A DNA stretch of 56,300 nucleotides from a virus. Lineage: Duplodnaviria; Caudoviricetes. The stretch spans positions 1 to 56,300 of the IMG/VR virus record IMGVR_UViG_3300029442_000006; one strand, given 5' to 3'. The notes beneath the pieces are model-generated. The model was not told the origin of the DNA and did not search any database. It saw only the letters and a program-made list of their open reading frames with translations. Of this stretch, positions 29,037 through 56,300 are shown piece by piece; position 1 is the first letter of the stretch; each line of letters starts with the position of its first letter. A program made the position numbers and the translations under genes.

Positions 29037-29053
29037 AGCGCATGGTTCGGACT
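29010..29053 (-). mobile_element. attC-like half-site (R''/L'' end of cassette B)
   Basis: Minus strand AGTCCGAAC-CATGC-GCTTCACC-TAAC; its plus-strand GTTCGGACT is the exact reverse complement of AGTCCGAAC at 29400-29408. Confidence 0.65.
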
Positions 29054-29069
29054 CGAAGAAAGGACAATC

Positions 29070-29447: not shown

Positions 29448-29477
29448 ATGACACTCAAGGCGTGAACGATGGAACAA

Positions 29478-33901: not shown

Positions 33902-33915
33902 GATTTACAAGTTCC

Positions 33916-34440
33916 TTAAGGTTGAGCAGCGACCCACGAGAGTAGCCCATTAATCACACTGGCAACAGCAGGATTGGTACTCGCCAAAGCCATCAGGTCA
34001 CTGACGGTATAGACGGTGGGAGCGGTTGGCGGCGTGGTCTTGACGACGGGATACCAGATACCGCTCGCGCGAATTGGGCTGGACGGAACAGCGGCATAAA
34101 CCCCAACGCCATCAGGCAGGGTAGCTTTTGCAGCAAGCCCCTGAATGACGCTTCGCGCTGCTAAGACTAATCCCGTCAGTGAGGAGTTGTTACTTACCAG
34201 TGTAACAACAATGTTCTTGTCGTGGCCGGTGATGACATTTGTGCCGTCATACGGCGACAGAGTTGCGGTAAATACCTTGTCTGACAGGTACATTCTGGTC
34301 GCCCAATACCGGTTAAACACGCCGACAGACGGCGGAGTGTTATTGGTGATTACTGGTAAGGCTGACGACTGTGCATTTATTTTACTGGAAGTTGCCAGTA
34401 ACACGGTGACTAAGACTACTGCGATGAGATGCTTTTTCAT
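33916..34440 (-). CDS. Secreted hypothetical protein (174 aa)
   Basis: Signal peptide MKKHLIAVVLVTVLLATSSKINA|Q. Confidence 0.65.
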   Translation of the reverse strand: MKKHLIAVVLVTVLLATSSKINAQSSALPVITNNTPPSVGVFNRYWATRMYLSDKVFTATLSPYDGTNVITGHDKNIVVTLVSNNSSLTGLVLAARSVIQGLAAKATLPDGVGVYAAVPSSPIRASGIWYPVVKTTPPTAPTVYTVSDLMALASTNPAVASVINGLLSWVAAQP

Positions 34441-39405: not shown

Positions 39406-39421
39406 GAGTTTCTGGCAACTG

Positions 39422-39443
39422 ACTACTGCAACTTTCGGGCCAA
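39422..39443 (-). promoter_or_regulatory. Sigma-54 late promoter P4 (adaptor/fibre/membrane module)
   Basis: TTGGCCCGAAAGTTGCAGTAGT; intergenic, 8 nt after the bEBP stop. Confidence 0.88.
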
Positions 39444-39451
39444 CAGGTAGC

Positions 39452-40519
39452 TTAGGAAAGCTCGGTGAAGTGGTCGGGAGTTAAAACATTAACCCCTGCA
39501 CCCGCAGTCAAGGCAGCCTGTCGCACCACGTCAAACAGTTGGCGGGCATTCCCCGGCCAGTGCTGGCGAGATAAAAGCTGCTTTGCGTCCTCCGAAAACA
39601 GCCATTGACCGCCAAACTCGCCTGCCGCCGTTTGCAACGCATGTTCTGCGAGCAGGACAATATCCCGCTCACCACGTTCTCGAAGTGGGGGGATGAAGAT
39701 TGCCACCTGTTTCAGACGGTAATACACATCCGAGCGGAATCGCCCTTGCTTGATCGCCGCATTCAAATCTTGGTTGGAGGTCGAAATAATTCGTAAATTG
39801 ACAGCCTTTTCAGTATTGGAGCCAACGCGGGTGATTCGCCGGTGTTGCAGGAAATCGAGCAGCTTGGCCTGAGTTTCAATCGGTATTTCACTTACTTCAT
39901 CGAGTAAGAGGGTTCCGCCTTCCGCTGCCTCCACTCGCCCCATCCGATCTGTATTGGCTCCCGTGAATGCGCCGCGAACATGCCCGTTGAGTTCGCTATC
40001 CCAAAGGGTTCCGGTAATCGCCGGGCAGCAGATTGTTTTGAAAGGTTTCGCATGACGTTGGCTAGCCTTATGAATCAGTTCTGCCAAAAAAGACTTGCCG
40101 GTACCTGTTTCACCGGTAATTAAAAGCGACGCATCCCGATTTGATAAAAGTTCCGCCGTCGAGCGCATTGCCTTGATGATAGGGGACTCGCCCACAAATG
40201 AATCCAACCAATGTTTTCGCCCTTGTAATGCGACTGGATGGATCAAGGTCTCAACAATCTTGCGGGAAAGCTCGGATGGGCAAAAGGTTTTCTCGTAACG
40301 AATCACACTTAATGGAAGCCTTGCCCGCCTTGCGTACCCATCCTGCATGATTAACACTGCGGATGGAGATTCTTTCATTTTACTTTCAGCGTCAAACCAT
40401 CGCTGGGCGATATGGATCGAGATTGTTTTTGAAGCGTTCCGAATTGTTTCGATAACCAGCGACCGGCGATTAAAGTCCGGTTCATACACCACTACGGTTT
40501 GCGGCGCAGACGTAATCAT
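39452..40519 (-). CDS. Sigma-54 bacterial enhancer-binding protein (NtrC-family AAA+), degenerate receiver-like N-terminus, no C-terminal HTH
   Basis: [60 protein letters not shown]; the protein ends about 25 aa after sensor II. Confidence 0.95.
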
Positions 40520-40540
40520 TATACAGCCTCCTTTCGGAGG

Positions 40541-40571
40541 ATTATGTATTACTCCGCTCTGTAAAAGTCAA
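40541..40571 (-). promoter_or_regulatory. Possible sigma-70 promoter for the bEBP gene
   Basis: TTGACT followed at 17-19 nt by TACATA/CATAAT; the RBS lies in hairpin CCTCC-GAAA-GGAGG. Confidence 0.45.
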
Positions 40572-40577
40572 TCAATT

Positions 40578-43500
40578 TTACTGCGAAATCGTCTGAATCA
40601 TATCCGACATCGAGGAGGCCGAGCGGGTCTTCGATGTTTTTTCAATTCTCGATAATAACTCATTCTTTTGGTCGTCAGTGAGCGAGCGCGAATATGAGAT
40701 TTTTTCTTCAATCATTCCGCGTATTTCGCTTTGTTCGGCTGATGTAAGTTTTTCAAAATAGTCAACCGCCTCCTTTGGGTGGACGTGTTGTAACTTGGCT
40801 TCTAGCGAAGAAAGTGCCGCCTGTTTTTCAATCGCTCGAACATCTGCCTCTGTAATCTTACCAGCCGAGTAAGCCGCATTGAGTGCGTTGACGGCTTTCG
40901 GATCATTAGCGCGATACATTTCGATTAAGGATTGCCGCTCAGACTGTGGCTTACCGGATGGTAAAAGCTGGCGAAGCAGTGTTTGCGCTTGTCCGCTACC
41001 GGGGACTCCAGCAAAGGTTGCCGCGCTACCCGCAAGAGCTAACCCCGCTTGAGCCTTTGTATTCGGAGTCTGTGCTTGTGCATATCTCTTTACGGACTGC
41101 GCCGCCCCCTCTATTGCATCTACAACAGGGATTCCAGTGCTACCATACTTCCATGCGCTTACGGCGTTACCCGCCATCGGAGCTACGTTTTTGACCAAAT
41201 CAATTAACAATTCCTCGCCGGCTTTGACCGCTGGGCTTGGTTCGTTTTTACGCGGTTTTTTGACTTTCTGTTGGATTCCGGCAGCCGCGAGTAAAGCCTC
41301 CGCAATCTCTTTCGTAATGTAAACTCCTAACGCAATTACACCCAAGTGAATCAAGGAAGAAATAATTATCCCTGCCGCTGCTCGACATGCTTGTTTTGCG
41401 TCGCGTTCCTCAATTCCAAGTGCTTTGAAATCGCGTTTGTAAAAACCGTACCGCTCCATTAGATACCCTTGAAATGTAGTAACCGCTCGATCCAGCGTGA
41501 CGTTGCCGGATAGCGCACCCTGCGACCGCATCAATGGCAAATCTTTTGTGAAAACTGAGGCAGTCGCCCCATGTGAATATACTAGAGCGGTTGCAAGACT
41601 CTCCTTGTTGAGTGGGATTTCCCCCGTTTCTGGTACGGGAGTACCCGCTTCTTCCATCAGCTTCCCGTAAGCCCCCGCAAAACATGCCATTGAATTGTAT
41701 TTATCCGTTACACGAGCGACCAAGTATTCGCTGGGGTGCATCCCTTGTTTCTTGTACATATCGCCGCCGCCACGGATGAATAATTCTGGAACATTCCGTT
41801 GCATGAAATCTTGCCAGCGGGTTTGACAGCAGTGAGCCACACCAGCGGCATACCACGACGGCCCGATCAACGCCTGTGCGATTCCAGCGTTTGAGATGTG
41901 CTTCATTTGTGAGAAGGGACGGTAGCTTGTCATCGCCCGATTCATCCGATTGGAAACCCAATCCACCCACTTAATCCGCTTTTGCCCATTGTCACCGCCG
42001 CCACGCTTAGCGACTGCATCTAGCCAGAGGCGAACAGCGTATTGGCCGGTAGCTCCATAGTGTTCACGGAACTTTTCCGAGCTAATTGCTCGCATCAGCA
42101 CTTGAACCGGTTCTTGCATGGAAAGATAATAGGCAACATCATCCATGTGCTGCTGAAAGACTCGCGTTGCATCCAGTTGAACATTCATGGCTCCACCGGT
42201 TCGCTTCATGGTGAATCCTTGTGGCGCTTTTGCCGACGGTTTCCGGCGTTGCTCAAACAGGCGATCATAAACTTCCATATCTGAAAGCTGTGACCAATCC
42301 CGAAGTCGCGGCCAGTAATTCTTAACTTTTGGCATTTCCCGATTGTAAAGCCGCCGCGTCAGATTGTTCACGGCGTCATATTGTGAATCCATCCGCTCGC
42401 GCGCATAGTCGTAAAACTTTTTCTCGTTGGCTTTTAAGAAAGCATCGGGATTAAACCATAGCTGATCAATGATGGACTTATCCACGCCACTCTCAAAAAG
42501 GTTTTCGACTCCTCCCGCCTGCATCGCCTCAGCGTAAGCGGCAATTCGCGAACTTGCGGCTGAATCAATTTTCCATTCCTGCAACTTCTCTGCAAGGTCG
42601 CCATAGAGTTTTTTGGACAACTTGAGATACTCTTGGTGTCCTAAGTCCACCGGCCCTTTTAGCCATTTAACCAGTCCTTTGCCGTAGTTCCGGGCGGACA
42701 TTAAATCTAAAACATAGTTGATCGGCGGATAAGCCCACCCAAAACGGGTCTGCAAATTCCGCATTGAAATCACTCGGTTGGCAAGATTATCTTGCCATGT
42801 TAGCTCTGAACCCGGTTGTGGACGGAGTAGGGGGTGTTCATTCAATGGGTGCGTCTCGCCCTCTGTTCCAAATAACCCAACGAGTTCTTGTACCTGCGAT
42901 TCAAAAAGTTGCTTCCGAATCTCTTCCGTAACGCGCCCCAATGTAACAAGCTGTTTGGTCTGCTCCGCCATCTGTTGCAGAGCTTCTGTGGACATTGCCG
43001 CATGATCCGAATTGATGAATTGGCGCAACCGGTCTTTGACTTCGACTGACACGTTCTCACTTTGCACGGCGGCTCGTGCCAGTTTCAAAATCGAGCGATA
43101 CGCTTCCCGTCGGCTTGTTTCATCTGCGAAACTGTCAATCCGCGCCACGATGGATGCCGCCTTTTTGTAACGTGCATAAACCGATTTCGCCATTTCCTTT
43201 TCACTCAACATCTTCGTCGGATCGGGTTCTTTCAAAGCATCCGTTAAAGCTCTGGCGTAACGCCCTGCAAGATTCCGTCCTAATCGCTCCTCAGCGTAAC
43301 CAATTAAACTCTTTTTCAGGAAGTCAGTAATCTGGCGTTGGTAGTTAAACGCCTGTTGAATGTCGCTTGATTTCTTGGCTTCACCATAAGCGCGACCACT
43401 GGCAGCGGCTTCTTCCATCGCCGCTATTTTCTCATTCAAAAATGCCGCCGCACCTATCGCAGTCGAAAGCTCATCGGTTGTACGCTTGATAATCTGTTTC

Positions 43501-46500
43501 GTCGTCTCGCCACTACTCGGTACAGTTTCCTGCCGAATAATATCCTTGATTACAGTGTCAGTAAAACGCGGGTCTTTCCCTCTGCGATTCCGAGCAAAGC
43601 CCCGCGCTAAACCTAATGCGGTTCGCTCTAATCGTGTCGGTGGCGTTTCGTGAAGAAGCTCACCCTTCACGTACACTTGCCCGATCTGTTGCCCTTGTTC
43701 GTTTTGACGAGTGCGAAGCCCGGTGAATGGCTTCTCTGGCTGCTCTCCCTCATCCTCCGCGCCACCGGGTTCAGTCGGCTTGGACGGCGGGGTGGGGGGC
43801 GGCAGTGCCCCGGCCTCGCTTCTGGCGAATAGCGGTTGCCCCTTGGTCAGCACGTCGGCCTTCATGCTGGGTGTCAGCTTAATGATGTGGAGGGGGACGG
43901 TATCAGGATTAGACTCGTACCACTTTTGGTATGCAGATGTCTGTGTGTAAAACTTCCCACTCGCGCGCTCAGACTCATATTGATCCTGCAACCCGCTTTC
44001 CTTTAAAAATGTTCCAAAGTCTTTTTGTGGATTAAGATTTGTTGGCGCGTTCGCCGTCTCAACCGTCCCTCCCCACTGCTTGACGTACTTCTTGGCGTAG
44101 TCAACGAGCATCTTATCGTACAGCGTCGAAGCCCAGCCACCGCCGACGCGCAACTGCTCGCCCTTCAATTCGTGGTTGCCCGCCCCATTGACAGGGGTTT
44201 CCAGCAACTTCTTGGCAACGTCTTTCCCAACGTAGTCCGCCAACTTCTCAGGTGGGACTCCCTGCTCTTTGATAACCTGCTGGTCGCCTTTTCGCGCCGA
44301 CAACTGTTTGTTGTACGGGTCATAGTGAACGCTATCCACTTCCTTGCTCAGATCATACCGCTCGGCCACGACGCTGCCGGCGTTCCACCCCACAAAGTCC
44401 ATCCCTTCCTCTGCCGCCTGCCGGATCAGCCATTTCAACGATAGCTCGTAGTGCTTCTGGATGAGGGGGGCATCCGGTGTCTCTTGCTGTCTGACGCGAC
44501 GATCCAACTCCACAAAGGTTTCATTCTCGCTTGTTCCCAAGTCTCGCTCTTGAGCTTTGGCGTACAGTCTCGCGTATTCCGCCTTTTCATCTGCGGTTAG
44601 CGGTTCAAGTTTCTTCTCTGACTCCCGCGCCTTCTGCGCCCAATCCCCCTGCATTTCCAACCCCACCTTGCCCTTGCCAATCCCCGGCACCGTCATCGTG
44701 GAGTAGATCACCCGCGCCACTTGGTTTACGTCCGACTCGTCGCCGTACTGGTGGGCGGAGGGGACGCGGAATGATTCGCCTACTGCCCTGATATTGGAGT
44801 TGGGGTTGCCTTTGTTGTAAATGGACTTGGCGGTTTCCATGATTTCAGAATCAGGCAAACCGTTATAATCACCCTTTTTATCCATCTGAATATCGTCAGC
44901 AAAGGTCGCCAGCTTCTTGCCATCGTAGTAGATAGTGTACTCGCCTTGGGTGACTGAGCGGCGGTTGCGCTCGATCTTCACATTGTCAGTGTTGAATGGC
45001 TGTTTTGCCGGTAAATTAAACACCGCCTCGCCGTACCCCTCGTCGGTCGGCACGTTCTTCATGTAACTGCGGAACTTGGTGACACCGGGAGGATTATGCG
45101 CCGTGTCATAGATTTCTGAGGCGGCTGCCTTCGCGTCTGCGTCCATCAGTGGTACGGGAAAATCATTTTGCCACTTTTTACCAACGAAAACGCTTGGCCC
45201 GGAAAACGACACTTCGATTGTTACGTCATCGCCAGTCATTTCGGGGGCAACTTCCGCTGTGGCTTTGTATCGGCCGGCAAATTTCTTATTGAACGACTCA
45301 ACAAGTTTCTCAACCTTATCTAAAACTTCACTATCAGCTTCCCCGCCCCTGTCCGTCACCTTGACGTTAACCTGATTCTCTCGCAAAAACTCCAACGCTT
45401 CGGCCTTCGTCACCGGCTTACCGTCCGCACTGCGTTGATCAATCCAAGTATTGAACCCGGTCCACTTCAATTCATCGGCCTTCACACCCGGCTTACCGGC
45501 CAGCATCCCCTTCAACTGCTGCGGACTGAACTTCTCTTGCGGTAAGTCTTCCACTGTCTTGGTCAACGCGGAATAGAACGTGTCGGCTTGTTCCTGTGCG
45601 CGCGCGGCTGTGGTCGTTACTGTTTCGCCCGAAGGCTCGACTCTCTCCCCCGGATTGCGCCCTTTCGCCTTCGCTGACAGTAAATCATTCAGGTACGCCC
45701 GAATCTCGGAATCACTCAAATCTAGTGAGAAATTGAGTTTGCGCGCCAGCCGCTTGAACGCCAGCATCACGGCATCCATGAACCGCCGCCATAACCCAAC
45801 CTTGTGCTTACCATCCCGGAACGCTTTAGCAACGACTTCATGGTTGAACTCCGGTGTCCCGCGTTTGTACCCGTAGTTCTTCTCGATCTCACCGGCAATG
45901 TTGTTCCAGTTGCCGCCATACGTCAGACTGCCGATGATGTTCCAGTCGCGTCCGCCCATCTCATTGACGAGCCGGTGACCGGCTTCCTCGCGGATGTCGC
46001 CACGCAACTGGCCGGCGTTGTCGTACCGGTCGAGGAAGAAATGACTGCGGTTGCCGTAGGTGATTGCCCGGACTTCGCCGTTGCGGGAGAGGTGGAAGCG
46101 GGGGTTATCAAGTTTCGCTACTGATTTTTTTTCTCCAAGAAATTGCAACGCCATATCCAACGGAGAGTTGTAGCCCTGATTTTCAAGCACTTCTCCCCAA
46201 GACTCATACCACGCAGTAGGAGAATCCGGTCGTCCAAACCCGCCGCGATCTCTCCGCTGTTTCGGGTTGCGCTTGTCGCCAATCCGCAAGTCAACATCTG
46301 GTACGCTCTTTGCGGAATCAGTCGCAGGGTGATCGCTGATCCGCACATCCACGCGAACATAGTTTGACTCAGGATCGTCGGCAAACTCTGCGGCATTGTT
46401 GGCGTAAAGCTCCGTCGCATCAGGCCAAAGACGGTGAGCCTTAACCGCCGCCTCATAAGATTTCGGATGCAAATACACCGTAAGATACATTGACTCTGAT

Positions 46501-49500
46501 TGGTATGACCCTTTTCCTCTAACTGTTGCGTGAGAGAAAACGTCGCTTCCCTCAATACTCCATCGTGAGTCTCGGAGTGTCTTTCTGACATTTTCCTTCT
46601 GTTCTTCGGCCTCCGCTTTCGCCTCTAGTGCCATGTCGCCGGACTTAACTTGATCGTTCGCGTAATCAAATGCTTCACGCAATGTCTTGAAATCCCTGTA
46701 CGTTTCTCCGTCATTCCAAACACGAATATCTGGCGACTCAGTTTGGTCAACCAATCCATTCCCGTTTTCATCAACTTCATCGGATAGAGGCCATCGTTCT
46801 TGTACATCCACGGATTTACCATCTGCATCTCTACCAACGTCCCACCTACGAATGCGCTGATTTCTTTCCTCGTATTCCTCATCTGGCTCTGGTGTTTGCC
46901 ATTCCTCCGCCGCCTGCCCCTCGCCGCTTTCCGCGAGCATCTTCCAGAACTCAGCATCAGCGCCGGTATCAGTGGATAGTCCTGCCGTCACGTTCTCAGC
47001 CGCAAACGGTACAGCCATCGTCTCGGAGGCCAGTGCTTCGTTGAAGGTGTCGCGGGAAAGTGGGGTGCGAGTGGTTGCGCTGGCTTCGCCAATCTTGGAG
47101 AACTTCGTGGCAACTGCATTGCGGGAAAATACGGCGTCGTACCTCGCTTTGGGTAACTCAGAAACAATCTGATCTGCCTTTGCAACAGCGGACGAAATTT
47201 CTGGATTGTCTTTGACAATCTCAGTATCCAGTTTTCCGACCAGCATATCTATCGGGCGCGGATTCCCGGAACGATCTGTGCGTAAATTGTCCCCACGCAC
47301 GTCACTCACCAAATACGGTTCACCATCCACTACCGTCACAAAATTCCGGACCGTATCCGTTGGACGCGCAATCGCCTTGTCAGACACTTCGACGATCGCA
47401 CCCCGCTGGATTGCACCTGATACATCTTCTGAACGTTCCGCACCCCACGGCTGTTTGGTGACAATGACACCCTCAGGGGTCATGCCAAGAATTTCAGTCG
47501 GCGCACCGCCGATTGCATTGTGAATACGGATTCTGTCCAGTAGGTCAAGCACGCTACCGGGCTTGGCTTTTGCGGCTACCTCACCGCGCAACTCTACAAT
47601 TCCTAAAGTGGCTCCAATCCCGCGATTGTAAGGGATATAAAGTTTGTAAGCGAACTGGTCGTTGTTAGATTGGAATACCGCGCCTTCCGCTCCTTGTCCA
47701 ACATTCACACGGCGCATCTTGTCGGAGTGAAGGCGTTCCCACAAAGACCAAGAAGAATAATTCTTTGTGTCTGAAATGCCGAGATCGGCAGAAGTGATTG
47801 GCTTTAGACCGAGGACTTCGTTGAATCGCCTTGCAAAATCTGGCGCACCCAATTGATCGCCGGATTGTCCGGAAGCCGCTGCCCACTTTCGATAATTTCC
47901 AGCGGAACTGGCGGCAATATCCCGTGCGGTGTCAGCAGCAACTCGCCGGGAGGTAAGTCGAGAAGGATTTTGCGTAACTGAGTCGCGTTCACGTTCCTCT
48001 CTATACTCACCTTCGATATTTGATGCAACAACTTTTTGTCCCGGTTCTGGATTAGTACCACGTCCAACCTCGCCAGACTCATCCCGAACCACTCGTTTCA
48101 ACTCCGCAATCGCCCGGTCAACCAAACTGCGAATCTTGATCCACGCCGCGCCAATCTTGTCCCGGAACCACTGGTACACGCCTTTCGTTGTCCGCTTGCC
48201 ATTGCCCCAAGCATCTTCGACAATAGTGCGGACTTCATTCGCTACTTCCTTTGTAAGCAGCGCGGGATTGATGATGCTTCCCTTGTCGTCCGAAAGGCGT
48301 TTCTTGAGACTGTTTTCTGCATCTTCCGGTGATTGACTCTCAGTGTCCGGGCTTTCATCGGATTGGTGTTGCTTCTTTTCAATCGCGTCAATCTCAGATT
48401 GTAAGGTTTTTAGGTATGTCTCTGACGGCCAGTCCAGTTTCTCAGATTGTTCCTTGATTTGATTGACTCGGTTTGGCCCGGTCAAATCTTCAAGTTTCTT
48501 CTCGGCTGCGGAAATCTTCACGTCGGTATCATTGCTACCGCCTTCTTTGCTTTGCTTGACGAGGCGTGACATAATCTCAGCCAGTTTGCGCTTTTCCTCG
48601 GCAAGAGTGGTATCTTGATCGAACTTCTTTCCGGTCTGCTTCTGCAATGTTTCGATATTGAACTTGGATTGCGCGATCTGATCTTCCGCACGTTTGACGT
48701 GCAACCCGCTGGCGATGCTGCGGATCGTGCCGAGCGCAGAACGGGCGATGGAGAGAGCGTCTTTCGTGCCGGACTCGTCTGCCGCCAGTCCCATCTCGTA
48801 GGTGTTTTCTCCGCGTACAAGGTAGCCATGTACGGTGTTTTGACCCGCATGCCGGCCGCCCTGCATCCGGGCGACAACAGTAAACGGTCCAATGTGGGCA
48901 ATCGGATAGTCAGTCTTGTCGAGTTCAACTCCCAGCAGTGAATCTACGGCGGTTTCGAGAGCCTTTTTTAGTGGTTCCTTCTGCTCAGTGTACGTCTTCC
49001 CGTGAACCTCAATCTCTTTAGCCTCCTGCGCCATGACGGTCTTGGCTGACTCGAAATCGCGATTGAGTCTCGGTACTTCGGCCTGCACCCGTGTAATGTT
49101 CCGGTTCTCGTAATCAATCTGTGACTGGACACGGGCTTGCGCTGTCTGGAAAATGCGCCGTTTCTGTTCTAGCTTCTTGATATTCTCCTGCGCTTCGACG
49201 GCATTCAACACATCTGGATTACCCGTTGCTTCGGCCATGACACGCGCCGGCGATATTTCCTCACTGTCGGTTTCTTCAATCTCCCGAACTTTAGCACCGT
49301 ACTTCAAGAATTGGTGAATGAACGCATCTTTATTGTTAATCAGTGACCAAACGAATGAGTCAAGTGATCCCTCGGTAACGTAACGAGAAATTCCAATCTC
49401 TGAATGACGATTTTTTTGCCGCCACGAACGGCCATCGCGCTGCCGCATTCGCCCCGGTGTCATCGGGGCGTCAATGTTGTGTCCATACTTCAAATGTTTT

Positions 49501-52500
49501 TGCGCGTTGACGCCTGTTCCCATCGTCGCGGTCGAGCCGATGCCAACCAACGCTTGACCGTTGCGGAGATTGGCAATCGCCGCGAGCCGTTCGTCGCCTT
49601 CTTTCAGCTTCGTAAAATCAATAATCTTGTTGCGCGGGATTCCGCCCTTCACCAGTCCGTCAATGATGTGCTTGTAGAGGCTGAATCCCCAATCGGTCGG
49701 GTTCACTCCCATATCGGAGAAAATCATCTGCGTGACGGTTGGATCGGCCTTATAATTCGCCAACACCGCCGCAATCGCCTTAGCTACCTTACCTTCAGGG
49801 TTCTCGGTGTAATTCGGAGTAATTAGCCCCATGTGCAACGCGGCTTTGCGGCCATCGGTGCAAATCTTGAGCATGTTATCGCCGCCCTTTTCAACCTTTT
49901 TCCCCTTCAAATCTTTGGCGCGTTGAGCAAGCTCGCGCATATACGCCGCCTGCTCCTTGTTCATGTCGGCCTTTACTACCGCCTCAATCTTCTTCGGGCG
50001 TTTGATGTTGGGCATGTCTTCGACAAACCGCGTGTCGAGCATCTGGCGCGCAATCGCGGACAACTCCTGCAAATTGGTGAACCGCTTGAAGCGTGTCGTC
50101 GGCTTGAACTCACCGGCAGCGGTCGGCTCAATCTGTGTCACGGTCTGGCCGAACGTATTCGCCCAGCCATCAAACGCCGAGATACCGCGTGCTTCGAGTT
50201 CTTCGGGTTGTAGGTACTTCTGCCAGTTGTAAAGCTCCACCATTGAATTATCAATCGGCGTGCCAGTCCCGAATACCATTATAGCTTTCGGGTTATTCTT
50301 CCGCATCCACCGGGTATTCAGCAGCAGGTTCGTCGCCCGATCAGATCGGGATTGCGGGATGCCTTTGACGCTGCCTCGGCTGGTATAGACGGGCAAACTT
50401 TTGTAAACGTGTGCCTCGTCAATCATCAGCATGTCAATCCCCGACTTCTGGAACGTAATCGCGGTATCGCGGGGGCGGTCGAGTGCTTCCTTGAGCTTTT
50501 CTTCCAACCGCTCTTTCAACTTCTCAAGCTGCTTGGTGGTTTTGTCCTTCTTGGCTCTGCGTCCGTAACGTCTCTCACCGCTATTAGCTTCGGCGGCGCG
50601 GATCACGTCCGACAACTCCGCGATTTCCTCACGGATAAACCCTTCTTCAACGTCCTTGTCCACGTCCATCATGTTGAGATTGTCGTGGGTCAGGATGATC
50701 AAATCCCAATCGCCAGTCGCAATCCGCGCAATAGTCTTGCGCCGGTTCTCCGCGTCGAAGTTCTCATTGGTCGAGAGAATCTTCATCGTCGGGAAAGCCC
50801 GTTGAATTTCCTCAGTGACTTGCTCGATATTGGCCTTCAACACCGACAATGCCGGCTTGTTGGCAAAACCCAGTTCTTTCATCTTCGCCGCTGCCATGCC
50901 GTAAATTAGTGACTTTCCTGTTCCCACTTCATGCCCCATAAGAACCCTACGAACGTGCATGATTAGTGAAACAGTATTATTCTGGTGAGTATAAGGAATT
51001 ACTGACGTACTCATCGTAGGAAACTCCAACCACGAACCGTCAGATTTGAGTTCTACGATATTATTCATGGTGTCGTTGTAGAACCGGTGCAACCTCGCCC
51101 GGCGTTCGTCGTCAGTCCAAACCCATTCTTTGAACAACTCACGAACTTCCTCAACCTTCAGGTTCGCCGCTGCCGATTCGTCGGGCAGGAACACGCGGTG
51201 TTCACCATCGGCATCCTTCACCGGCTTGTAGAGCATGATCGGCTTGTCATCCATCGCGCTCTGTACGATGTCCTGAAAGTCGGCCATTGGCGTGCCGTAA
51301 GTCTCGGTGAATGATGGGCGATTCTTGATGTACTTGTCCCGCACGTCGAGAATCCACTTGCCGGTCTTCTGCAAGTACGCCGCCGTCATCATCTCTGGCC
51401 GGAAGTTGTGCAGGGACGCGAAGAACTCGGAGTAGTCCGAACCCGGAACCCACGGCGAGCCGAGTTTCACGTCAATCTCGCTGTGCGGTTTGTCTTCTGG
51501 AATGGCCTTTTTCAGAGCCTCGACGTTGTGATTTAACGACGGATCGAGCTTCGCCGCCGCTTCCGCCTGCAACAGTTTCGCTCGCACGTTGCCGGACAGG
51601 TAGAAATCAGACAACTCCAAACCGCCGTCAGGCGTCTTGAATGCCATACCGCTGCGGGTCAGGTCGGCAACAACCTCATCATGGGATTTTCCGATCAGTT
51701 CGCCTATCCGGTCGGGATCAATCCCACCGGTCTCATTCATCGAATAGCCCACCGCCTGTTTGATGCTGTCGGCCTTAGTTTTCTTCTCCAACGCTTTGAC
51801 GGTGCGCTTGCTGAATATGTCGGCCTTTGTGACCGTCTTATTCTCCGGGTTGTATTGCTCCAATGCCAGCAGGTTCACCCAGTCGGGATCATCGGCAATC
51901 AGTCTCTTGTGGGTTTTGGAGTGCAGATTGTCAAACTTCTTCACGTAATCGTCGTAATGCCGGTTCAACGTCTCGCGCAGTGGCGTAAGATGGTCGTCGT
52001 TGACGCCAGCTAACTCCTGCGCGGTCAACTTCTTAATGTCGTCCCGGATCGCCAACAACTTCGACACTTGGGCAATTTCCTTGCCCATCTTTTTTTGCAC
52101 CATCTCGTTACCTTGCCGCTGCCAGAGTTCTTTGCTGTTGCGGACTTCGTACCCGTAATCCTTCAGCTTGGAATCCGCCTCGACGATTTTGCTCGGTGTA
52201 ACCGGCTTCGTGCGAGTCGTTTTTTCGTAAATGTTCTCCGGCAATCGCGCAATGGCCTGCTGTAACCGTTCTACGAAATCATCTGTTAGGCTTACGTTTG
52301 GTTGGCCACCACTGTAAAGCTTGCTCTTGCGGTCGAGCATACCGAGGATTTGCTCTGGATGGTCGGCGTAGTATTCGTTGATTGGGATTGGTTCGGCTGT
52401 TCCGGACATCTTGACTTCCCGAATCCCCATCCACTTTGTCCCGCTAGGCGCAACGCCTTCCGGTCGCCGTTTCAAAATTACGATGTCCGTTACAACTGAA

Positions 52501-55500
52501 GTTCCGGCGTTCTTCAGGAACGACCCACTCGGCAACCGCATCGCTGCTACCAAGTCCGCTTTCGACGCCAGCACTTCCCGGACGCGAGGATTCATCTTGT
52601 CAAGCGTGCCGGTGCTGGTGATCGCCACGAGCAACCCACCGGGCCGCACCGTCGAGATGCCTTTCAGAAAAAAGTAATCATGCAGATTTGCCCCGATCTT
52701 GTTGTACTTGTCCTGACGGATGGTAATGTCGCCAAATGGGTAATTCGATATTTGCAGGTCAAAAAAGTCGTCTGGTACATTTGCCTCTTGATACGGAGTC
52801 GTTTCGTGGTGGCCGTCCGGGTGCAACAGCTTGGCAATATTGGACGTGAGATTGTCCATTTCTGAGCCAACCAGCGAGGACTTGGCGCGCATGTCGCCGG
52901 GCATCACGCTGTAGAACAACCCAATCCCTTCAGCCGGTTCATTGATTTTGCCGCCTTTGAAACCCAGTCGCCGCACCATGTCCCACATCCCAACCGCCAA
53001 CCGAGGGGCTGTGAAGTGAGCGTTTATGGTGGAGGCTCGTGCGGACTCCCATTCATCATCCGTTAGTAACGCCTTGAGTTCTTCCCGCTCCTTGGCCCAC
53101 TTGCTCGCTTCGTCGCCGTAGTACCCAAACAGTCCTTCGGAGTATGACGACCGGCCCCAGCCAACGTAACGGGCGAGGGTGGCTTGCTCGGCGGGTGAGG
53201 CGAGTCGCTGTTCCTCCATGATCGCTTTCATCAAGCGAATGGCGGCGACGTTATCCTTGAACTTGGCTTTATCTCCGCCGTTCTCGAAGATGTCGAGGTC
53301 GGTGAGAGAGAAATTGTTAGAATTGGCGGGAGCTTTGGCTGCTGGCTTTACTCCGGCGTTAGCGACTTCAACCACTGATTCAGAGCCGACTCCGCTATCG
53401 AGTCCTCCGCTTCCTGTTCCTCCGGTGTTTCCGCTGGTGACGGACTGACGTTCTCCATCATTTCCCTGATCGCCGTCTCCCGCGCTACCTCCGGGGATGT
53501 TCCTTGTTCCACCATCAGGTTGAAGCTCTCCTTCGCTTGCTCCTGTTGCACTAGCAGGAACGGCAGTAGGTCGCTCTTTTTCAACAGTTCGAGGTGAAGT
53601 TCTGGCAGGTTGTTTTTGAGATGTTTTTTCAGAAGTTGGCCGAATGGCGTCAACTGTTTCTGCGGGAGTGTCGCCGCTTGGTCTTTCCAATAGCTCATTG
53701 TCTGCTCCTGTCTTAATATCGGCCTCGCGGCCTTGTTTGTCAATTACCTCGAAGATGCTCTTGGCGGTCGTCGCATCAACTTCATCCAGCCCCATAATCT
53801 CGGCAATCGAATTCCACGCACCACGGAGATACGCCTTGATCCTCTCCCACAATGACGGCATCCGGCCTTTCACGGCCTCCGCGAACTGCTTGAACGTCTT
53901 CGTCCCGCCCTTTGCGTACAATGCGGCCAACTGTGTCGCTGTGCTGATAATCTTGGGATCCGGTACGCCTGAAAGTACCTGTCCGAGAAGTTTGGTAAGT
54001 TCGGCTTCGAGACGCTCCGCCTCGGCTCGATCCTCGGCATTCAGGTTGTCGAGCGGGGACTTGACAGCGGGGGTAGATGTGGCTACCGGCGAAGGCTGCG
54101 CCGTTGCGGGGGCTGGCGCGACGGCTTGCGGTTTCCATGCGACACTGCCATCGGCCACGTCATCAGCCAGAAAGCTTTCCCCACCACTCAATGAGAACCC
54201 ATGCGGTGACGATGTTTTGACGCGGCTGTTGATTGTCCGTCCATCCACGTTAACCGTAACAAGGTCGCCTACGGTTGGCATCGCTACCGGTGGCTTGGCT
54301 GCCGGCGTTTCCTTAACCTGTGGGGTTAAAGGTTTCGCCGGCTCGTCCTTACGAGAATCTGCTCGCTCCACTTCGAAAGCCGGGTGAACAACCATGTTCT
54401 TGTCCACTTCTTTCTTGATAACCGCCTTCCACTGGCCGGGATTTTTCAAGAATGTTTCGAGTGAATTGCGGCTGGGGTAGCGTTTTACAAAGTAATCATT
54501 CCCGTCTTTGGTCGGCTTGATCGCCAGCAGGTTCGCGTCAGCGCGGTCGCGCAACTCTCTGTGACGTGCAAATGATATTGTAACCGGTGGGGCTGGCGGT
54601 AGGGCTGTCTGGATTGTGATGTCACCCTTGACAATCTTTGATTCTGACAAGACCGGCTTGCCGTTCTTGTACGGAAAATCTATTGCCACCACCTCATCGA
54701 ACGGCCCGGCTCCTTTTAACGTGTCAATGTTCTTCGCCTCGACCTTCGCAAATTTACCCTTAACCTGAACCCGAACACCCTTCGCACCTTCTGGAAGTTT
54801 GACCGTCTTACCGGCGTGCAATGCTTCAGCGAGGGTCTGAGGCGTGACATTTGAGGCTACCTGCCCACCGGTCACGGCCGGAGCTTCCGGCGGAACTGGC
54901 GCAGGGGTCGTTGCTTCTGGCGTGGGTGCCGGTGACACGGCGGAGGGTTTCGGGCCCGCAACCCACTCGTCAATGGCTTTGCGCGTGTCGCGCTGGGTTG
55001 ATGGTAACTTAATACCGGTTTCCTCGGTGAAGATTTTACGGGATAGCGGGTTGCCAATATCGAGGATAGCTTTTAAGGCGTTGGGGTCTTTGGCCTCGAT
55101 CGCCGCCGTCAACCGTTCCAGCGTCTTGGGGGCGACCTGCTCACGGATTGGCAGGTCTTCCACCCACTTGCGGTATTCCTGCGCGTACTGGTCTTTCTTC
55201 GGTGACTTCGCCATCTCTGCCAGCGTCATGCCTTTGGATGCTGCAAAGCGGTCTTGTAGGGTTGTCGCTACTACTGGCGCTGTATCCGCTTCTGGCGTTA
55301 CCGTACCGGGGGGCTTGATGTCAGGGTAATCGGCCAGCACTTCGGGGGGGACTGGCTTGCCGGCGGCGATTGCGTTTTTGACGGTGTTGTAATGCGCTGA
55401 CTCATTTGGAGTCGCCCCCTGATAACCTTGAGCGCGAAGTTTGGCGTTGTCTGGTTCCAGCTTTCTGCGAGTATCTTCAATCCACTCCGCGCGCGTCATC

Positions 55501-56300
55501 TGCCACGGCTCTTTTGCCGCTGCTGTGGGCGGCGCGACGGGTTTTTCAGGAGCGGGGACGGGAGTCGGGGGGTTGGCGGTGTCTGAATGACGCCGTAACC
55601 AGCCCTCAATCTTCGTAACCGCATCGGCTATCTGTTGCGGAGTGGCGTTCTTCGGCACCTCGTACCATTGGTCAACTGCGCCAAACTCTTTCTCGCGGAA
55701 AGGTGACGGTTCGTGATCGCGAATTGAAAGTTTGTACGTCTTGGTTTCGTCGGGTTCGCCGTCAGCATCCCGCGAAAGAATCTTCGTGACCTTGTAATAG
55801 ACGCTCCCCCACTTGGTGTCCTCAACTTCAACCTTCATATCAGGTGGGGTGTCAAAGGTGTTGATAATCTCATTGCGTGCTTCGGCGTTCGCTACGTCGC
55901 CTTCTGTATTTCCGCCAGCCTCAACATGCCACTTGGCTTCTTGAATGGCATCTTCGGGAGTCTTTTCCCATTTAATCGTGCTGCCGTTTTCATCTTCAAC
56001 AATGTACTGGCCTTTGTGAAGTGATACGGTTGCAGTGCGGTCATTTCCTTTTGCTGGCGATGAAATCAACCAGTTCTCCGGCTCATCCTCACCGGCTGGC
56101 CTGTGGTCAACTGTGGCTTCATTTGCAGCAAGAGCCTTCTGTTCGACTACAGCATGATCGGCAATGACTTTCGCACGCTTGGCAACCGCTCCCGTCTCTT
56201 TCGCCGCTGCTGTTGGCTGCGCGACGGGCGGGGCGGGGGGTTGGGAGGCAAGCCATTCCGTGTACTCTGCCTGCAACTGCTGTTGCTGGTCTGGCGGCAA
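40578..56300 (-). CDS. Giant DarB-like polyvalent protein (C-terminal 5240 aa; about 5,980 aa when joined to 442-2652): N6-MTase, SNF2-like helicase, kinase-like, metallopeptidase-like and other domains
   Basis: NVAAIRL...LARYVGWG, NAHFT, EPAEGIG, ISNYPFG (~52740); HEVGTGKS (~50920), IDEAH (~50415), TGTPIDNS, GTGVNAQ, QRDGR; GQGAEGAVF..AYK and SDVRGDN..ID (47230-47700); EEAGH...HEVVA (~45980); FYSAL...EMQGDW (44300-45580). Confidence 0.9.
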   Translation of the reverse strand: MPPDQQQQLQAEYTEWLASQPPAPPVAQPTAAAKETGAVAKRAKVIADHAVVEQKALAANEATVDHRPAGEDEPENWLISSPAKGNDRTATVSLHKGQYIVEDENGSTIKWEKTPEDAIQEAKWHVEAGGNTEGDVANAEARNEIINTFDTPPDMKVEVEDTKWGSVYYKVTKILSRDADGEPDETKTYKLSIRDHEPSPFREKEFGAVDQWYEVPKNATPQQIADAVTKIEGWLRRHSDTANPPTPVPAPEKPVAPPTAAAKEPWQMTRAEWIEDTRRKLEPDNAKLRAQGYQGATPNESAHYNTVKNAIAAGKPVPPEVLADYPDIKPPGTVTPEADTAPVVATTLQDRFAASKGMTLAEMAKSPKKDQYAQEYRKWVEDLPIREQVAPKTLERLTAAIEAKDPNALKAILDIGNPLSRKIFTEETGIKLPSTQRDTRKAIDEWVAGPKPSAVSPAPTPEATTPAPVPPEAPAVTGGQVASNVTPQTLAEALHAGKTVKLPEGAKGVRVQVKGKFAKVEAKNIDTLKGAGPFDEVVAIDFPYKNGKPVLSESKIVKGDITIQTALPPAPPVTISFARHRELRDRADANLLAIKPTKDGNDYFVKRYPSRNSLETFLKNPGQWKAVIKKEVDKNMVVHPAFEVERADSRKDEPAKPLTPQVKETPAAKPPVAMPTVGDLVTVNVDGRTINSRVKTSSPHGFSLSGGESFLADDVADGSVAWKPQAVAPAPATAQPSPVATSTPAVKSPLDNLNAEDRAEAERLEAELTKLLGQVLSGVPDPKIISTATQLAALYAKGGTKTFKQFAEAVKGRMPSLWERIKAYLRGAWNSIAEIMGLDEVDATTAKSIFEVIDKQGREADIKTGADNELLERPSGDTPAETVDAIRPTSEKTSQKQPARTSPRTVEKERPTAVPASATGASEGELQPDGGTRNIPGGSAGDGDQGNDGERQSVTSGNTGGTGSGGLDSGVGSESVVEVANAGVKPAAKAPANSNNFSLTDLDIFENGGDKAKFKDNVAAIRLMKAIMEEQRLASPAEQATLARYVGWGRSSYSEGLFGYYGDEASKWAKEREELKALLTDDEWESARASTINAHFTAPRLAVGMWDMVRRLGFKGGKINEPAEGIGLFYSVMPGDMRAKSSLVGSEMDNLTSNIAKLLHPDGHHETTPYQEANVPDDFFDLQISNYPFGDITIRQDKYNKIGANLHDYFFLKGISTVRPGGLLVAITSTGTLDKMNPRVREVLASKADLVAAMRLPSGSFLKNAGTSVVTDIVILKRRPEGVAPSGTKWMGIREVKMSGTAEPIPINEYYADHPEQILGMLDRKSKLYSGGQPNVSLTDDFVERLQQAIARLPENIYEKTTRTKPVTPSKIVEADSKLKDYGYEVRNSKELWQRQGNEMVQKKMGKEIAQVSKLLAIRDDIKKLTAQELAGVNDDHLTPLRETLNRHYDDYVKKFDNLHSKTHKRLIADDPDWVNLLALEQYNPENKTVTKADIFSKRTVKALEKKTKADSIKQAVGYSMNETGGIDPDRIGELIGKSHDEVVADLTRSGMAFKTPDGGLELSDFYLSGNVRAKLLQAEAAAKLDPSLNHNVEALKKAIPEDKPHSEIDVKLGSPWVPGSDYSEFFASLHNFRPEMMTAAYLQKTGKWILDVRDKYIKNRPSFTETYGTPMADFQDIVQSAMDDKPIMLYKPVKDADGEHRVFLPDESAAANLKVEEVRELFKEWVWTDDERRARLHRFYNDTMNNIVELKSDGSWLEFPTMSTSVIPYTHQNNTVSLIMHVRRVLMGHEVGTGKSLIYGMAAAKMKELGFANKPALSVLKANIEQVTEEIQRAFPTMKILSTNENFDAENRRKTIARIATGDWDLIILTHDNLNMMDVDKDVEEGFIREEIAELSDVIRAAEANSGERRYGRRAKKDKTTKQLEKLKERLEEKLKEALDRPRDTAITFQKSGIDMLMIDEAHVYKSLPVYTSRGSVKGIPQSRSDRATNLLLNTRWMRKNNPKAIMVFGTGTPIDNSMVELYNWQKYLQPEELEARGISAFDGWANTFGQTVTQIEPTAAGEFKPTTRFKRFTNLQELSAIARQMLDTRFVEDMPNIKRPKKIEAVVKADMNKEQAAYMRELAQRAKDLKGKKVEKGGDNMLKICTDGRKAALHMGLITPNYTENPEGKVAKAIAAVLANYKADPTVTQMIFSDMGVNPTDWGFSLYKHIIDGLVKGGIPRNKIIDFTKLKEGDERLAAIANLRNGQALVGIGSTATMGTGVNAQKHLKYGHNIDAPMTPGRMRQRDGRSWRQKNRHSEIGISRYVTEGSLDSFVWSLINNKDAFIHQFLKYGAKVREIEETDSEEISPARVMAEATGNPDVLNAVEAQENIKKLEQKRRIFQTAQARVQSQIDYENRNITRVQAEVPRLNRDFESAKTVMAQEAKEIEVHGKTYTEQKEPLKKALETAVDSLLGVELDKTDYPIAHIGPFTVVARMQGGRHAGQNTVHGYLVRGENTYEMGLAADESGTKDALSIARSALGTIRSIASGLHVKRAEDQIAQSKFNIETLQKQTGKKFDQDTTLAEEKRKLAEIMSRLVKQSKEGGSNDTDVKISAAEKKLEDLTGPNRVNQIKEQSEKLDWPSETYLKTLQSEIDAIEKKQHQSDESPDTESQSPEDAENSLKKRLSDDKGSIINPALLTKEVANEVRTIVEDAWGNGKRTTKGVYQWFRDKIGAAWIKIRSLVDRAIAELKRVVRDESGEVGRGTNPEPGQKVVASNIEGEYREERERDSVTQNPSRLTSRRVAADTARDIAASSAGNYRKWAAASGQSGDQLGAPDFARRFNEVLGLKPITSADLGISDTKNYSSWSLWERLHSDKMRRVNVGQGAEGAVFQSNNDQFAYKLYIPYNRGIGATLGIVELRGEVAAKAKPGSVLDLLDRIRIHNAIGGAPTEILGMTPEGVIVTKQPWGAERSEDVSGAIQRGAIVEVSDKAIARPTDTVRNFVTVVDGEPYLVSDVRGDNLRTDRSGNPRPIDMLVGKLDTEIVKDNPEISSAVAKADQIVSELPKARYDAVFSRNAVATKFSKIGEASATTRTPLSRDTFNEALASETMAVPFAAENVTAGLSTDTGADAEFWKMLAESGEGQAAEEWQTPEPDEEYEERNQRIRRWDVGRDADGKSVDVQERWPLSDEVDENGNGLVDQTESPDIRVWNDGETYRDFKTLREAFDYANDQVKSGDMALEAKAEAEEQKENVRKTLRDSRWSIEGSDVFSHATVRGKGSYQSESMYLTVYLHPKSYEAAVKAHRLWPDATELYANNAAEFADDPESNYVRVDVRISDHPATDSAKSVPDVDLRIGDKRNPKQRRDRGGFGRPDSPTAWYESWGEVLENQGYNSPLDMALQFLGEKKSVAKLDNPRFHLSRNGEVRAITYGNRSHFFLDRYDNAGQLRGDIREEAGHRLVNEMGGRDWNIIGSLTYGGNWNNIAGEIEKNYGYKRGTPEFNHEVVAKAFRDGKHKVGLWRRFMDAVMLAFKRLARKLNFSLDLSDSEIRAYLNDLLSAKAKGRNPGERVEPSGETVTTTAARAQEQADTFYSALTKTVEDLPQEKFSPQQLKGMLAGKPGVKADELKWTGFNTWIDQRSADGKPVTKAEALEFLRENQVNVKVTDRGGEADSEVLDKVEKLVESFNKKFAGRYKATAEVAPEMTGDDVTIEVSFSGPSVFVGKKWQNDFPVPLMDADAKAAASEIYDTAHNPPGVTKFRSYMKNVPTDEGYGEAVFNLPAKQPFNTDNVKIERNRRSVTQGEYTIYYDGKKLATFADDIQMDKKGDYNGLPDSEIMETAKSIYNKGNPNSNIRAVGESFRVPSAHQYGDESDVNQVARVIYSTMTVPGIGKGKVGLEMQGDWAQKARESEKKLEPLTADEKAEYARLYAKAQERDLGTSENETFVELDRRVRQQETPDAPLIQKHYELSLKWLIRQAAEEGMDFVGWNAGSVVAERYDLSKEVDSVHYDPYNKQLSARKGDQQVIKEQGVPPEKLADYVGKDVAKKLLETPVNGAGNHELKGEQLRVGGGWASTLYDKMLVDYAKKYVKQWGGTVETANAPTNLNPQKDFGTFLKESGLQDQYESERASGKFYTQTSAYQKWYESNPDTVPLHIIKLTPSMKADVLTKGQPLFARSEAGALPPPTPPSKPTEPGGAEDEGEQPEKPFTGLRTRQNEQGQQIGQVYVKGELLHETPPTRLERTALGLARGFARNRRGKDPRFTDTVIKDIIRQETVPSSGETTKQIIKRTTDELSTAIGAAAFLNEKIAAMEEAAASGRAYGEAKKSSDIQQAFNYQRQITDFLKKSLIGYAEERLGRNLAGRYARALTDALKEPDPTKMLSEKEMAKSVYARYKKAASIVARIDSFADETSRREAYRSILKLARAAVQSENVSVEVKDRLRQFINSDHAAMSTEALQQMAEQTKQLVTLGRVTEEIRKQLFESQVQELVGLFGTEGETHPLNEHPLLRPQPGSELTWQDNLANRVISMRNLQTRFGWAYPPINYVLDLMSARNYGKGLVKWLKGPVDLGHQEYLKLSKKLYGDLAEKLQEWKIDSAASSRIAAYAEAMQAGGVENLFESGVDKSIIDQLWFNPDAFLKANEKKFYDYARERMDSQYDAVNNLTRRLYNREMPKVKNYWPRLRDWSQLSDMEVYDRLFEQRRKPSAKAPQGFTMKRTGGAMNVQLDATRVFQQHMDDVAYYLSMQEPVQVLMRAISSEKFREHYGATGQYAVRLWLDAVAKRGGGDNGQKRIKWVDWVSNRMNRAMTSYRPFSQMKHISNAGIAQALIGPSWYAAGVAHCCQTRWQDFMQRNVPELFIRGGGDMYKKQGMHPSEYLVARVTDKYNSMACFAGAYGKLMEEAGTPVPETGEIPLNKESLATALVYSHGATASVFTKDLPLMRSQGALSGNVTLDRAVTTFQGYLMERYGFYKRDFKALGIEERDAKQACRAAAGIIISSLIHLGVIALGVYITKEIAEALLAAAGIQQKVKKPRKNEPSPAVKAGEELLIDLVKNVAPMAGNAVSAWKYGSTGIPVVDAIEGAAQSVKRYAQAQTPNTKAQAGLALAGSAATFAGVPGSGQAQTLLRQLLPSGKPQSERQSLIEMYRANDPKAVNALNAAYSAGKITEADVRAIEKQAALSSLEAKLQHVHPKEAVDYFEKLTSAEQSEIRGMIEEKISYSRSLTDDQKNELLSRIEKTSKTRSASSMSDMIQTISQ

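Follow-up and report, generated by a model that had tools for sequence, protein, structure and literature searches.

The genome of a lake-water phage (IMG/VR virus record IMGVR_UViG_3300029442_000006, 56,300 nt; this whole stretch is hereafter called the window) encodes a bEBP (bacterial enhancer-binding protein), that is, a sigma-54 activator, which lacks a DNA-binding helix-turn-helix (HTH) domain, and carries four near-identical copies of a 22-mer with the layout of a -24/-12 promoter, which we name P1 to P4. We consider it probable that the phage bEBP acts from solution on host RNA polymerase (RNAP) bearing sigma-54 at P1-P4, as a late switch for virion genes. RNAP-sigma-54 binds -24/-12 promoters as a closed complex, and only a bEBP ring opens it. 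According to an extract of PMC3844500, bEBPs that lack a DNA-binding domain can work from solution on any sigma-54 closed complex, with lower efficiency and as a function of concentration, as shown for DctD250; Table 1 of PMC7175178 lists FlgR and CtcC as response regulator-AAA+ proteins without such a domain (D domain).

An earlier note on this DNA had proposed a sigma-54 late switch of this kind. Its core, an HTH-less bEBP with dedicated -24/-12 promoters, passes every computational test that we ran, whereas three of its details are not borne out (the promoter of the bEBP gene, the precedent of phage YuA and the names given to the gene modules). The core idea is strengthened because the genome is complete with no RNAP or sigma factor gene detected, because the phage bEBPs form a conserved phage-only clade, and because a degenerate receiver domain is supported.

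Four candidate sigma-54 promoters

The 22-mer TYGGCCCGRAAGTTGCAGTAGT has exactly four matches in the window when up to three mismatches are tolerated, each with 0 mismatches and each on the minus strand (Table 1), and dinucleotide-preserving shuffles give none (mean 0.00; 0/100). The four occurrences listed in the earlier note are thereby confirmed, including the invariance of 20 of the 22 positions and the GG-N10-GC spacing, which is exact in 4/4 copies. The -24/-12 consensus of sigma-54 promoters is TGGCACG-N4-TTGCA, the last base also being given as W. We scored every GG-N10-GC site in the window against this consensus, over 12 positions with GG and GC fixed: three copies score 11/12 and P1 scores 10/12. 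These three are the only sites in the window at 11/12 or above, compared with an average of 0.13 in 30 shuffles, and the genome-wide consensus scan that had been suggested as a check thus picks out 22-mer copies and nothing else at that level.

All four copies lie on the coding strand in gaps between minus-strand open reading frames (ORFs), which measure 35, 41, 138 and 46 nt for P1 to P4 as the ORFs were read, and they share a common layout of stop codon, about 6-8 nt, 22-mer, 7-16 nt and ATG. The gap at P3 is long because a terminator-like hairpin follows TerL. The statements that every copy is intergenic and that the early region has none both hold, the copies occupying short minus-strand gaps, each before an ATG, and none occurring in the plus-strand block at 20919-29260. 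No shared repeated element was found upstream near the four copies, and no variant falls in P1-P3 among 40 of the 55 variant positions in contigs of four studies. Setting the C of the GC at -12, from the sequence only, predicts leaders of 2, 6, 5 and 11 nt for P1, P2, P3 and P4. None of the first genes of the four units (0/4) has a Shine-Dalgarno sequence, and many other genes of the phage have AGGAG-like ones. One further candidate, TGGCGGTCGCATTGCA at 9634-9649 on the minus strand, matches the generic TGGC-N7-TTGCW exactly; situated within a 157-aa ORF, at its 3' end, it scores 9/12, is probably a chance occurrence and was left out of the count.

The activator protein

The Pfam model Sigma54_activat (PF00158) matches the bEBP at 195.5 bits against a cut-off of 20.2 (E 6.8e-58), and at 197.8 bits in a six-frame search. 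Direct reading places Walker A at G136-S143, the GAFTGA loop at G183-A188, Walker B at D207-E208, the arginine-finger segment at 260-L269 and R326 within PGNARQL; sensor I (N249), arginine fingers (R262/R268) and sensor II (R326) are all present and align with those of NtrC4 and LuxO. Walker A, Walker B, N249, R262/R268 and R326 are invariant in 5/5 relatives at about 42% identity, and in place of the GAFTGA seen here (183-188) the L1 loop of relatives, the element through which bEBPs contact sigma-54, reads GAFSGA once and GSFTGA three times. HTH_8 was found neither in the bEBP (E<=1) nor in its relatives nor in any of the six frames of the genome, and since the relatives end at the same point, the lack of an HTH is a trait of the family as a whole, not the result of a truncation. 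The earlier description of intact core motifs without an HTH is thus borne out by Pfam, by direct reading and by the six-frame search. Many NCBIfam bEBP equivalogs match, all below their cut-offs; the best PHROG is 7998, labelled 'unknown function'; and the closest solved proteins by sequence are NtrC4, LuxO, FleQ, NifA, NtrC1, ZraR and PspF (E 1e-54 to 1e-44).

The Pfam Response_reg model does not match the bEBP at E<=1. Several other lines of evidence concern its N-terminus. In an AlphaFold2 (AF2) model, residues 6-93 form a beta-alpha repeat with a predicted local distance difference test score (pLDDT) of about 80; the model is poor overall (pLDDT 53, from a five-sequence alignment, with low Foldseek template modelling (TM) scores), and the N-terminal domain alone was used. 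An hhalign comparison with 16 receiver-bearing bEBPs (NtrC-type receiver, REC) is collinear over columns 7-350; the receiver of the phage family is about 35 residues shorter, the conserved Lys column is not kept, and where the REC profile has its phospho-acceptor D56, the five relatives show Q/A/G/A/S. An ESM Atlas model gives TM scores of 0.71-0.78 to Response_reg clusters. Together with the lack of any HATPase_c (histidine kinase) domain encoded in the genome, these results make 'degenerate receiver', the term used in the earlier note, a fair description of the modelled domain. A host kinase may nonetheless act on the protein.

The P1 unit ends with the bEBP gene, which follows the giant gene after a gap of 58 nt (40520-40577), with no terminator before it. 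Its expression had been attributed to a sigma-70-like promoter, which a scan does not find: none lies in the 58-nt gap, sites in 38000-42000 are at chance level, and only TTGACT, 19 nt, CATAAT is visible by eye. The sigma-70-type promoters claimed for the early region fared no better, with 12 found in 18000-30000 against 9.7 +/- 3.1 expected by chance. A hairpin in the same gap contains the bEBP Shine-Dalgarno sequence in its 3' arm (Table 1) and may provide translational control of the activator.

Proposed mechanism

In the mechanism that we infer, the phage would make an HTH-less bEBP whose receiver-like domain can no longer be phosphorylated; as it is not phosphorylatable in the usual way, bEBP activity would most simply be set by its amount. 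The protein would accumulate until rings form and then, late in infection, contact from solution host RNAP-sigma-54 bound as closed complexes at the four near-identical promoters P3, P2, P1 and P4. ATP hydrolysis would open these promoters, ATP-dependent opening of sigma-54 closed complexes being the activity predicted for the protein. The units served would be the portal and head blocks, a third block at whose end the giant DarB-like gene lies, and the P4 block, whose genes have no family match. Because no terminator separates the bEBP gene from the rest of the P1 unit, which it closes, activation would be self-reinforcing, and the bEBP would enter a positive feedback. Translation would proceed from short leaders, with transcripts predicted to start 2-11 nt before the first ATG and no Shine-Dalgarno sequence.

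Genome structure and gene content

The window represents a complete circular (or circularly permuted) genome of about 55.9 kb. Closure falls between 56300 and 442. In another assembly, a representative protein of 1576 aa fuses residues 1-737 of the minus-strand ORF running from 2652 to 1 with the start of the giant ORF (from 56300). Within the window, bases 345-441 equal 56204-56300 and bases 1-354 equal 54942-55295, and three other studies supplied contigs in which 908 additional letters stand between the two repeat pieces, exactly as at the far end of the window. It is on these contigs, the 1576-aa protein and the terminal repeats that the closure and the genome length rest, and the CheckV completeness of 66% is consequently too low an estimate. 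The first 441 nt are a redundant variant copy of the end at 54942-56300, minus about 908 nt, and the junction is bridged by contigs of three other studies.

Table 1 Positions of the activator gene, the candidate promoters and other features of the window
Feature	Position	Strand	Description
bEBP gene	39452..40519	-	355 aa: degenerate receiver (fair description), AAA+ sigma-54-interaction domain and AAA lid
N-terminal domain, residues 1-104	40208..40519	-	CheY-like receiver fold without the conserved phospho-acceptor Asp or Lys
Sigma54_activat AAA+, residues 109-274	39698..40195	-	Walker A 40091-40114, GAFTGA 39956-39973, Walker B
AAA lid (AAA_lid_14), residues 280-351	39467..39682	-	Sensor II R326; protein ends 4 residues later
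P1	6497-6518	-	CGG for TGG at -24; ends 7 nt before ATG 6489; predicted +1 ~6491
P2	14257-14278	-	Before head block; ends 11 nt before ATG 14245; predicted +1 ~14251
P3	18487-18508	-	Between TerL and portal block; ends 10 nt before ATG 18476; predicted +1 ~18481
P4	39422-39443	-	Starts 8 nt past bEBP stop; ends 16 nt before ATG 39405; predicted +1 ~39416
Intrinsic-terminator-like hairpin	18550-18573	-	10-bp stem and T run after TerL, ~40 nt upstream of P3
Hairpin CCTCC-GAAA-GGAGG	40527..40540	-	3' arm is bEBP Shine-Dalgarno GGAGG
First gene after P1	5503..6489	-	328 aa; weak hydrolase and sulfotransferase-like matches
First ORF after P2	14054..14245	-	63 aa
P2 unit beyond first ORF		-	tRNA-Met, 440-aa protein, major capsid protein (MCP)-like gene 10649-11815, virion protein 6791-8356
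tRNA-Met (CAT)	13290-13366	-	Within head block, between 137-aa and 440-aa genes
First ORF after P3	18315..18476	-	53 aa; next a 76-aa ORF, then portal-like gene 15953-18079
First gene after P4	38320..39405	-	361 aa; no family match, no Shine-Dalgarno
Giant DarB-like antirestriction gene, C-terminal 5240 codons	40578..56300	-	Directly upstream of bEBP gene
Giant gene, N-terminal 737 codons	442..2652	-	Joined to 40578..56300 part across circle closure
Early block	20919-29260	+	Erf, exonuclease, replisome organiser, DnaC-like loader, HNH, methyltransferase
Minus-strand genes, unbroken	20787 round to 29478	-	Order: TerS-like ORF, TerL, terminator, P3, portal block, P2, head block, P1, five genes, giant gene, bEBP gene, P4, remaining genes

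The giant gene, of about 5977 codons, makes up about one third of the genome, matches phrog_10089 (E = 0) with methyltransferase and helicase parts, and has additional weak SNF2/DEAD matches; the C-terminal ~2600 residues of its product match no family. PHROG matches identify TerL, a portal-like protein, an MCP-like protein and a virion protein, and to this extent the module labels of the earlier note stand. Its 'ejection/giant protein' is the DarB-like antirestriction protein instead, and the P4 unit (361-aa and 918-aa proteins plus others) has no family matches, leaving 'adaptor-fibre' unverified.

No sigma-70 region 2 or region 4 and no sigma-54 DNA-binding domain were found in the six frames of the complete genome, and no virion-RNAP PHROG matches the giant protein. 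A T7-type RNAP was likewise not found in the six frames, a weak negative given that the positive control for the model gave no match. With that reservation, the suggestion that the phage uses no RNAP or sigma factor of its own agrees with the complete genome. The only Rfam match is a tRNA.

Two adjacent gene pairs, at 4080-4832 (153 + 92 aa) and 33377-34440 (174 + 174 aa) on the minus strand, are nearly identical in the sequences upstream of them, which makes tandem paralogues the probable reading. In all four runs, contigs fragment between about 4190 and 4820, where local depth is raised.

Relatives of the activator and of the portal protein

The bEBP is conserved in related phages. Four full-length or near-full-length relatives were found among 5.8 billion proteins, and the protein itself was seen on 85 contigs. 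The family profile recovers five clusters at 575-687 bits, the next protein scoring 293 bits, and in a tree of 55 rows the five phage clusters form one long-stemmed, phage-only clade (SH-aLRT, an approximate likelihood-ratio test, 100), which is not nested in any sampled cellular group, including the HTH-less proteins of Armatimonadota. The phylogeny had been proposed as a way to recognise a recent, decaying host fragment, and a separate, conserved phage-only clade emerged instead. Two members of the family lie on contigs of 60,521 and 61,537 nt and another on a contig of 37,750 nt; the first two lengths, 60,521 and 61,537 nt, recur exactly in the contigs that carry portal relatives P0122 and P0126 (51% and 48% identity). 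Judged solely from these equal nucleotide counts, related phages appear to keep the bEBP together with the closest portal relatives.

The exact 20-mer of the promoter is not found in IMG/VR, and scans with the bEBP and TerL as single proteins gave no viral relative. A scan of IMG/VR with the bEBP alignment gave 80 loci, all matching in the AAA+ core only, with the N-terminal domain in 0/80; in five of these (L011, L012, L024, L036, L074) the frame stops less than 60 codons past the match, and in L079 it runs off the locus. A metagenome scan also gave AAA+ core matches only, among the matches listed.

Scanning with the portal alignment yielded one viral locus, L162 in IMG/VR, and none in genome contigs. 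This locus (9.6 kb, 63% G+C, portal identity 47%) has three sites of at least 10/12, all on the gene strand, compared with 0.51 expected. The site at 4283-4298 (plus strand), TGGCACGGGTTTCGCT (TGGCACG-N4-TCGCT), occupies the gap between TerL and the next gene, which is the position of P3, and lies 19 nt before an ATG; that at 1699-1714 (plus strand) precedes by 14 nt a small gene located upstream of TerL. A third site, at 7665, is inside a conserved gene and was discounted as probably due to chance. GGGGAGG occurs in L162 between the -12 element and the ATG.

One HTH-less activator comes from an unrelated 31.6-kb phage fragment, G001 (the record of L074, with loci L166 and L167), which carries helicase, polymerase, ligase and primase genes. 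Its bEBP has 288 aa (PF00158, E 1e-61; phrog_7998), with a short N-terminal extension that gives no receiver match. Three same-strand GGCACA-N6-GCYTACA sites (1546, 10584 and 15063, in bEBP orientation) occur in G001 and 0 in 300 shuffles, the motif having been defined post hoc, after the data were seen; two precede start codons by 13 and 19 nt, one of these codons belonging to a MazG-like gene. It is this post hoc motif only that stands out in G001, as generic consensus scoring there is not enriched (8 vs 7.1). A broader proposal, which we put forward tentatively and with less than even confidence, is that phage-made enhancer-independent activators are a recurrent and undescribed strategy, serving as a self-amplifying threshold switch with near-leaderless virion mRNAs in the present phage and acting on replication-module genes in G001, with the host sigma-54 regulon turned on as a side effect.

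The host

The best cellular matches to the AAA+ core are HTH-less REC-AAA+ proteins from metagenome-assembled genomes (MAGs) of Fimbriimonadales/Armatimonadota. Sigma54_DBD is present in 5/5 of the Armatimonadota MAGs with the most similar AAA+ cores, with no link of these MAGs to the phage. A DNA search of window positions 442-20441 against 201 genomes of Fimbriimonadales gave chance-level matches only (E 0.002-0.01), and the phage bEBP clade is not placed with the Armatimonadota proteins in the tree. The proteins of these MAGs (L168-L172, L082-L085) are receiver-AAA+ bEBPs of about 390 aa without HTH and with a GAYTGA loop, and constitute an undescribed cellular group of FlgR/CtcC-type activators.

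Comparison with known systems

To our knowledge, all known phage late switches are antiterminators, sigma-70-family factors, sliding-clamp activators, DNA-binding activators or phage polymerases. The classical examples (lambda Q, T4 gp55/gp33/gp45, P2 Ogr, Mu C, phage sigma factors and phage RNAPs) share the logic proposed here, in that one phage product redirects transcription to virion genes late, whereas none is known to use the enhancer-dependent sigma-54 pathway with an ATP-driven activator.

Phage YuA of Pseudomonas aeruginosa, described by Ceyssens et al. in 2008 in J Bacteriol, provides a precedent for the use of host sigma-54. An extract of PMC5053324 gives YuA development as strictly dependent on host sigma-54 and calls such use by phages 'rare' but 'not unprecedented', and an extract of bioRxiv 10.1101/2023.10.13.562163 gives dependence on sigma-70 as well as on sigma-54. 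The earlier assertion that no characterised phage does this overlooks YuA and its host sigma-54 dependence as reported in these extracts, though YuA lacks a bEBP. YuA resembles the present phage in size (58.7 kb), and its reported dependence on host sigma-54 parallels the one predicted here. It differs in having no bEBP gene, either annotated or found by tblastn, and no repeated 22-mer, and the two phages are not detectably related. Three fragments inside the structural gene region of YuA are annotated 'high activity, -24/-12 consensus' (GenBank AM749441), whereas a consensus scan does not reproduce strong -24/-12 matches in them: the fragments variously give at most 8/12 on the gene strand, nothing at 7 or more, or 9/12 on the opposite strand, compared with 10-11/12 here.

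FlgR (Helicobacter) and CtcC (Chlamydia), group 5 bEBPs, have the same receiver-AAA+-lid order without a D domain (PMC7175178, Table 1), and the same enhancer-independent action from solution is expected of them. However, they are phosphorylated by a cognate kinase, whereas the phage protein lacks the Asp and the conserved Lys, has no HATPase_c partner encoded beside it in the genome, has a receiver about 35 residues shorter and is phage-encoded. DctD250 and PspF without its HTH, which are engineered, promiscuous and constitutive, likewise act through the AAA+ core on any sigma-54 closed complex in a concentration-dependent way (extract of PMC3844500), but these are laboratory constructs, whereas the phage bEBP is a natural gene with a pseudo-receiver, and the genome that encodes it also holds the matching promoters. 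An E. coli phage protein, Htm (Gp204), is described, in an extract of bioRxiv 10.64898/2026.10.06.757011, as an AAA+ protein that structurally resembles RtcR, PspF and NtrC, has no C-terminal HTH and is proposed to act on sigma-54-RNAP. By its authors' account it differs in having no GAFTGA loop and a DD Walker B; it is described as a modulator of host genes, and that extract reports no dedicated phage promoters (bioRxiv 10.64898/2026.10.06.757011). We found no description of a phage-encoded bEBP with its own sigma-54 promoters in the main texts of the full-text literature searched. Consequently, sigma-54-dependent phage transcription is already known, and a phage-supplied enhancer-independent activator with matching promoters is not, within the literature searched.

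Alternative explanations

Several observations weigh against a bEBP-driven late switch. Just 14-23 nt separate the -12 C from the ATG, and leaders of 2-11 nt without a Shine-Dalgarno sequence are unusual; the transcript starts are themselves predictions from the letters of the DNA. An invariance of 20/22 exceeds what sigma-54 recognition needs, and resembles phage-polymerase promoters or recent duplications. Beyond the four copies, generic TGGC-N7-TTGCW sites are not enriched in the window (42 vs 31.7 +/- 6 expected, with one mismatch allowed), and the TerS-like ORF and TerL lie outside the four units. A bootstrapping problem arises in that the unit closed by the bEBP gene would require bEBP for its own transcription, and no promoter for its first expression was found. 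The mechanism presupposes rpoN in a host, and the host search gave chance-level matches only. Among the relatives, the support from those that bear a bEBP is at the protein level, and none of the more distant portal relatives (on 46-62-kb contigs) has a bEBP family member on a contig of equal size; the system is not universal in the lineage. Lastly, a contig in run X10 joins 6480 to 6937 via 35 other letters, and a variant without P1 may therefore exist. This contig has a depth of 34.9, compared with about 10 for the main form, and replaces P1, the start of the 328-aa gene and a small upstream ORF; it represents either a natural variant without P1 or a contig from another organism.

One alternative is that the 22-mers are real sigma-54 promoters fired by host bEBPs, or without a dedicated activator, which seems to hold for YuA, and that the phage bEBP has another main job, such as taking over the host sigma-54 regulon or modulating or titrating host activators. 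YuA lends it some weight, given that its '-24/-12 consensus' fragments are annotated as highly active (2000 Miller units, MU) in GenBank record AM749441 and that it has no bEBP (0 Pseudomonas records among 66 tblastn matches). Moreover, according to an extract of PMC3844500, a bEBP without an HTH should be active at every sigma-54 promoter. However, the bEBP gene adjoins P4 and sits within the P1 unit, and the bEBP is retained in the closest portal relatives, as judged from equal contig nucleotide counts. Activation by host bEBPs normally requires enhancers specific to them close to the promoter, whereas the four copies share no upstream repeat. A host-takeover role and a role at the phage promoters are also compatible with each other, and overall we regard this alternative as unlikely.

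A second alternative, which we hold to be rather improbable, is that the 22-mer is not a sigma-54 promoter at all, being the promoter of another polymerase or sigma factor, an operator of some phage regulator, or a signal at the RNA level (for processing or translation start), with the bEBP as an unrelated accessory. The very high conservation of the 22-mer (20/22) would fit such an element, as would its extreme proximity to the ATG of unit-first genes that lack a Shine-Dalgarno sequence. Yet an unrelated element with the right spacing would match the consensus at 11/12 by chance with odds of about 2e-6 (37/4^12), and a sigma-54 activator is encoded 8 nt from one of the copies (P4). Additionally, the complete genome has no RNAP or sigma gene that we could find (weakly so for the T7 type), Rfam detects tRNA only, and the sites in L162 and G001 retain GG-N10-GC while their other bases differ. 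Finally, the view of the bEBP as a recently captured, decaying host gene fragment without a role in the phage cycle, already disfavoured, can draw on the missing C-terminal HTH and the degenerate receiver, and is highly improbable given motifs kept intact and without variation in five relatives that share about 42% identity, a long-stemmed clade of its own outside every sampled cellular group, and a C-terminal end common to all relatives of a protein seen on 85 contigs.

Implications

If the proposed switch operates as we suggest, an ATP-driven sigma-54 activator would add a different mechanism to the phage late switches, themselves textbook models of transcription control, and the presence of sigma-54 activator domains in viral contigs (PHROG 7998, 'unknown function') would be explained. 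For orthogonal expression, the bEBP and its promoters would also serve as a natural and compact activator-promoter pair that needs no enhancer. For the biology of such phages and their hosts, infection would switch on host sigma-54 regulons, and loss of rpoN would block infection.

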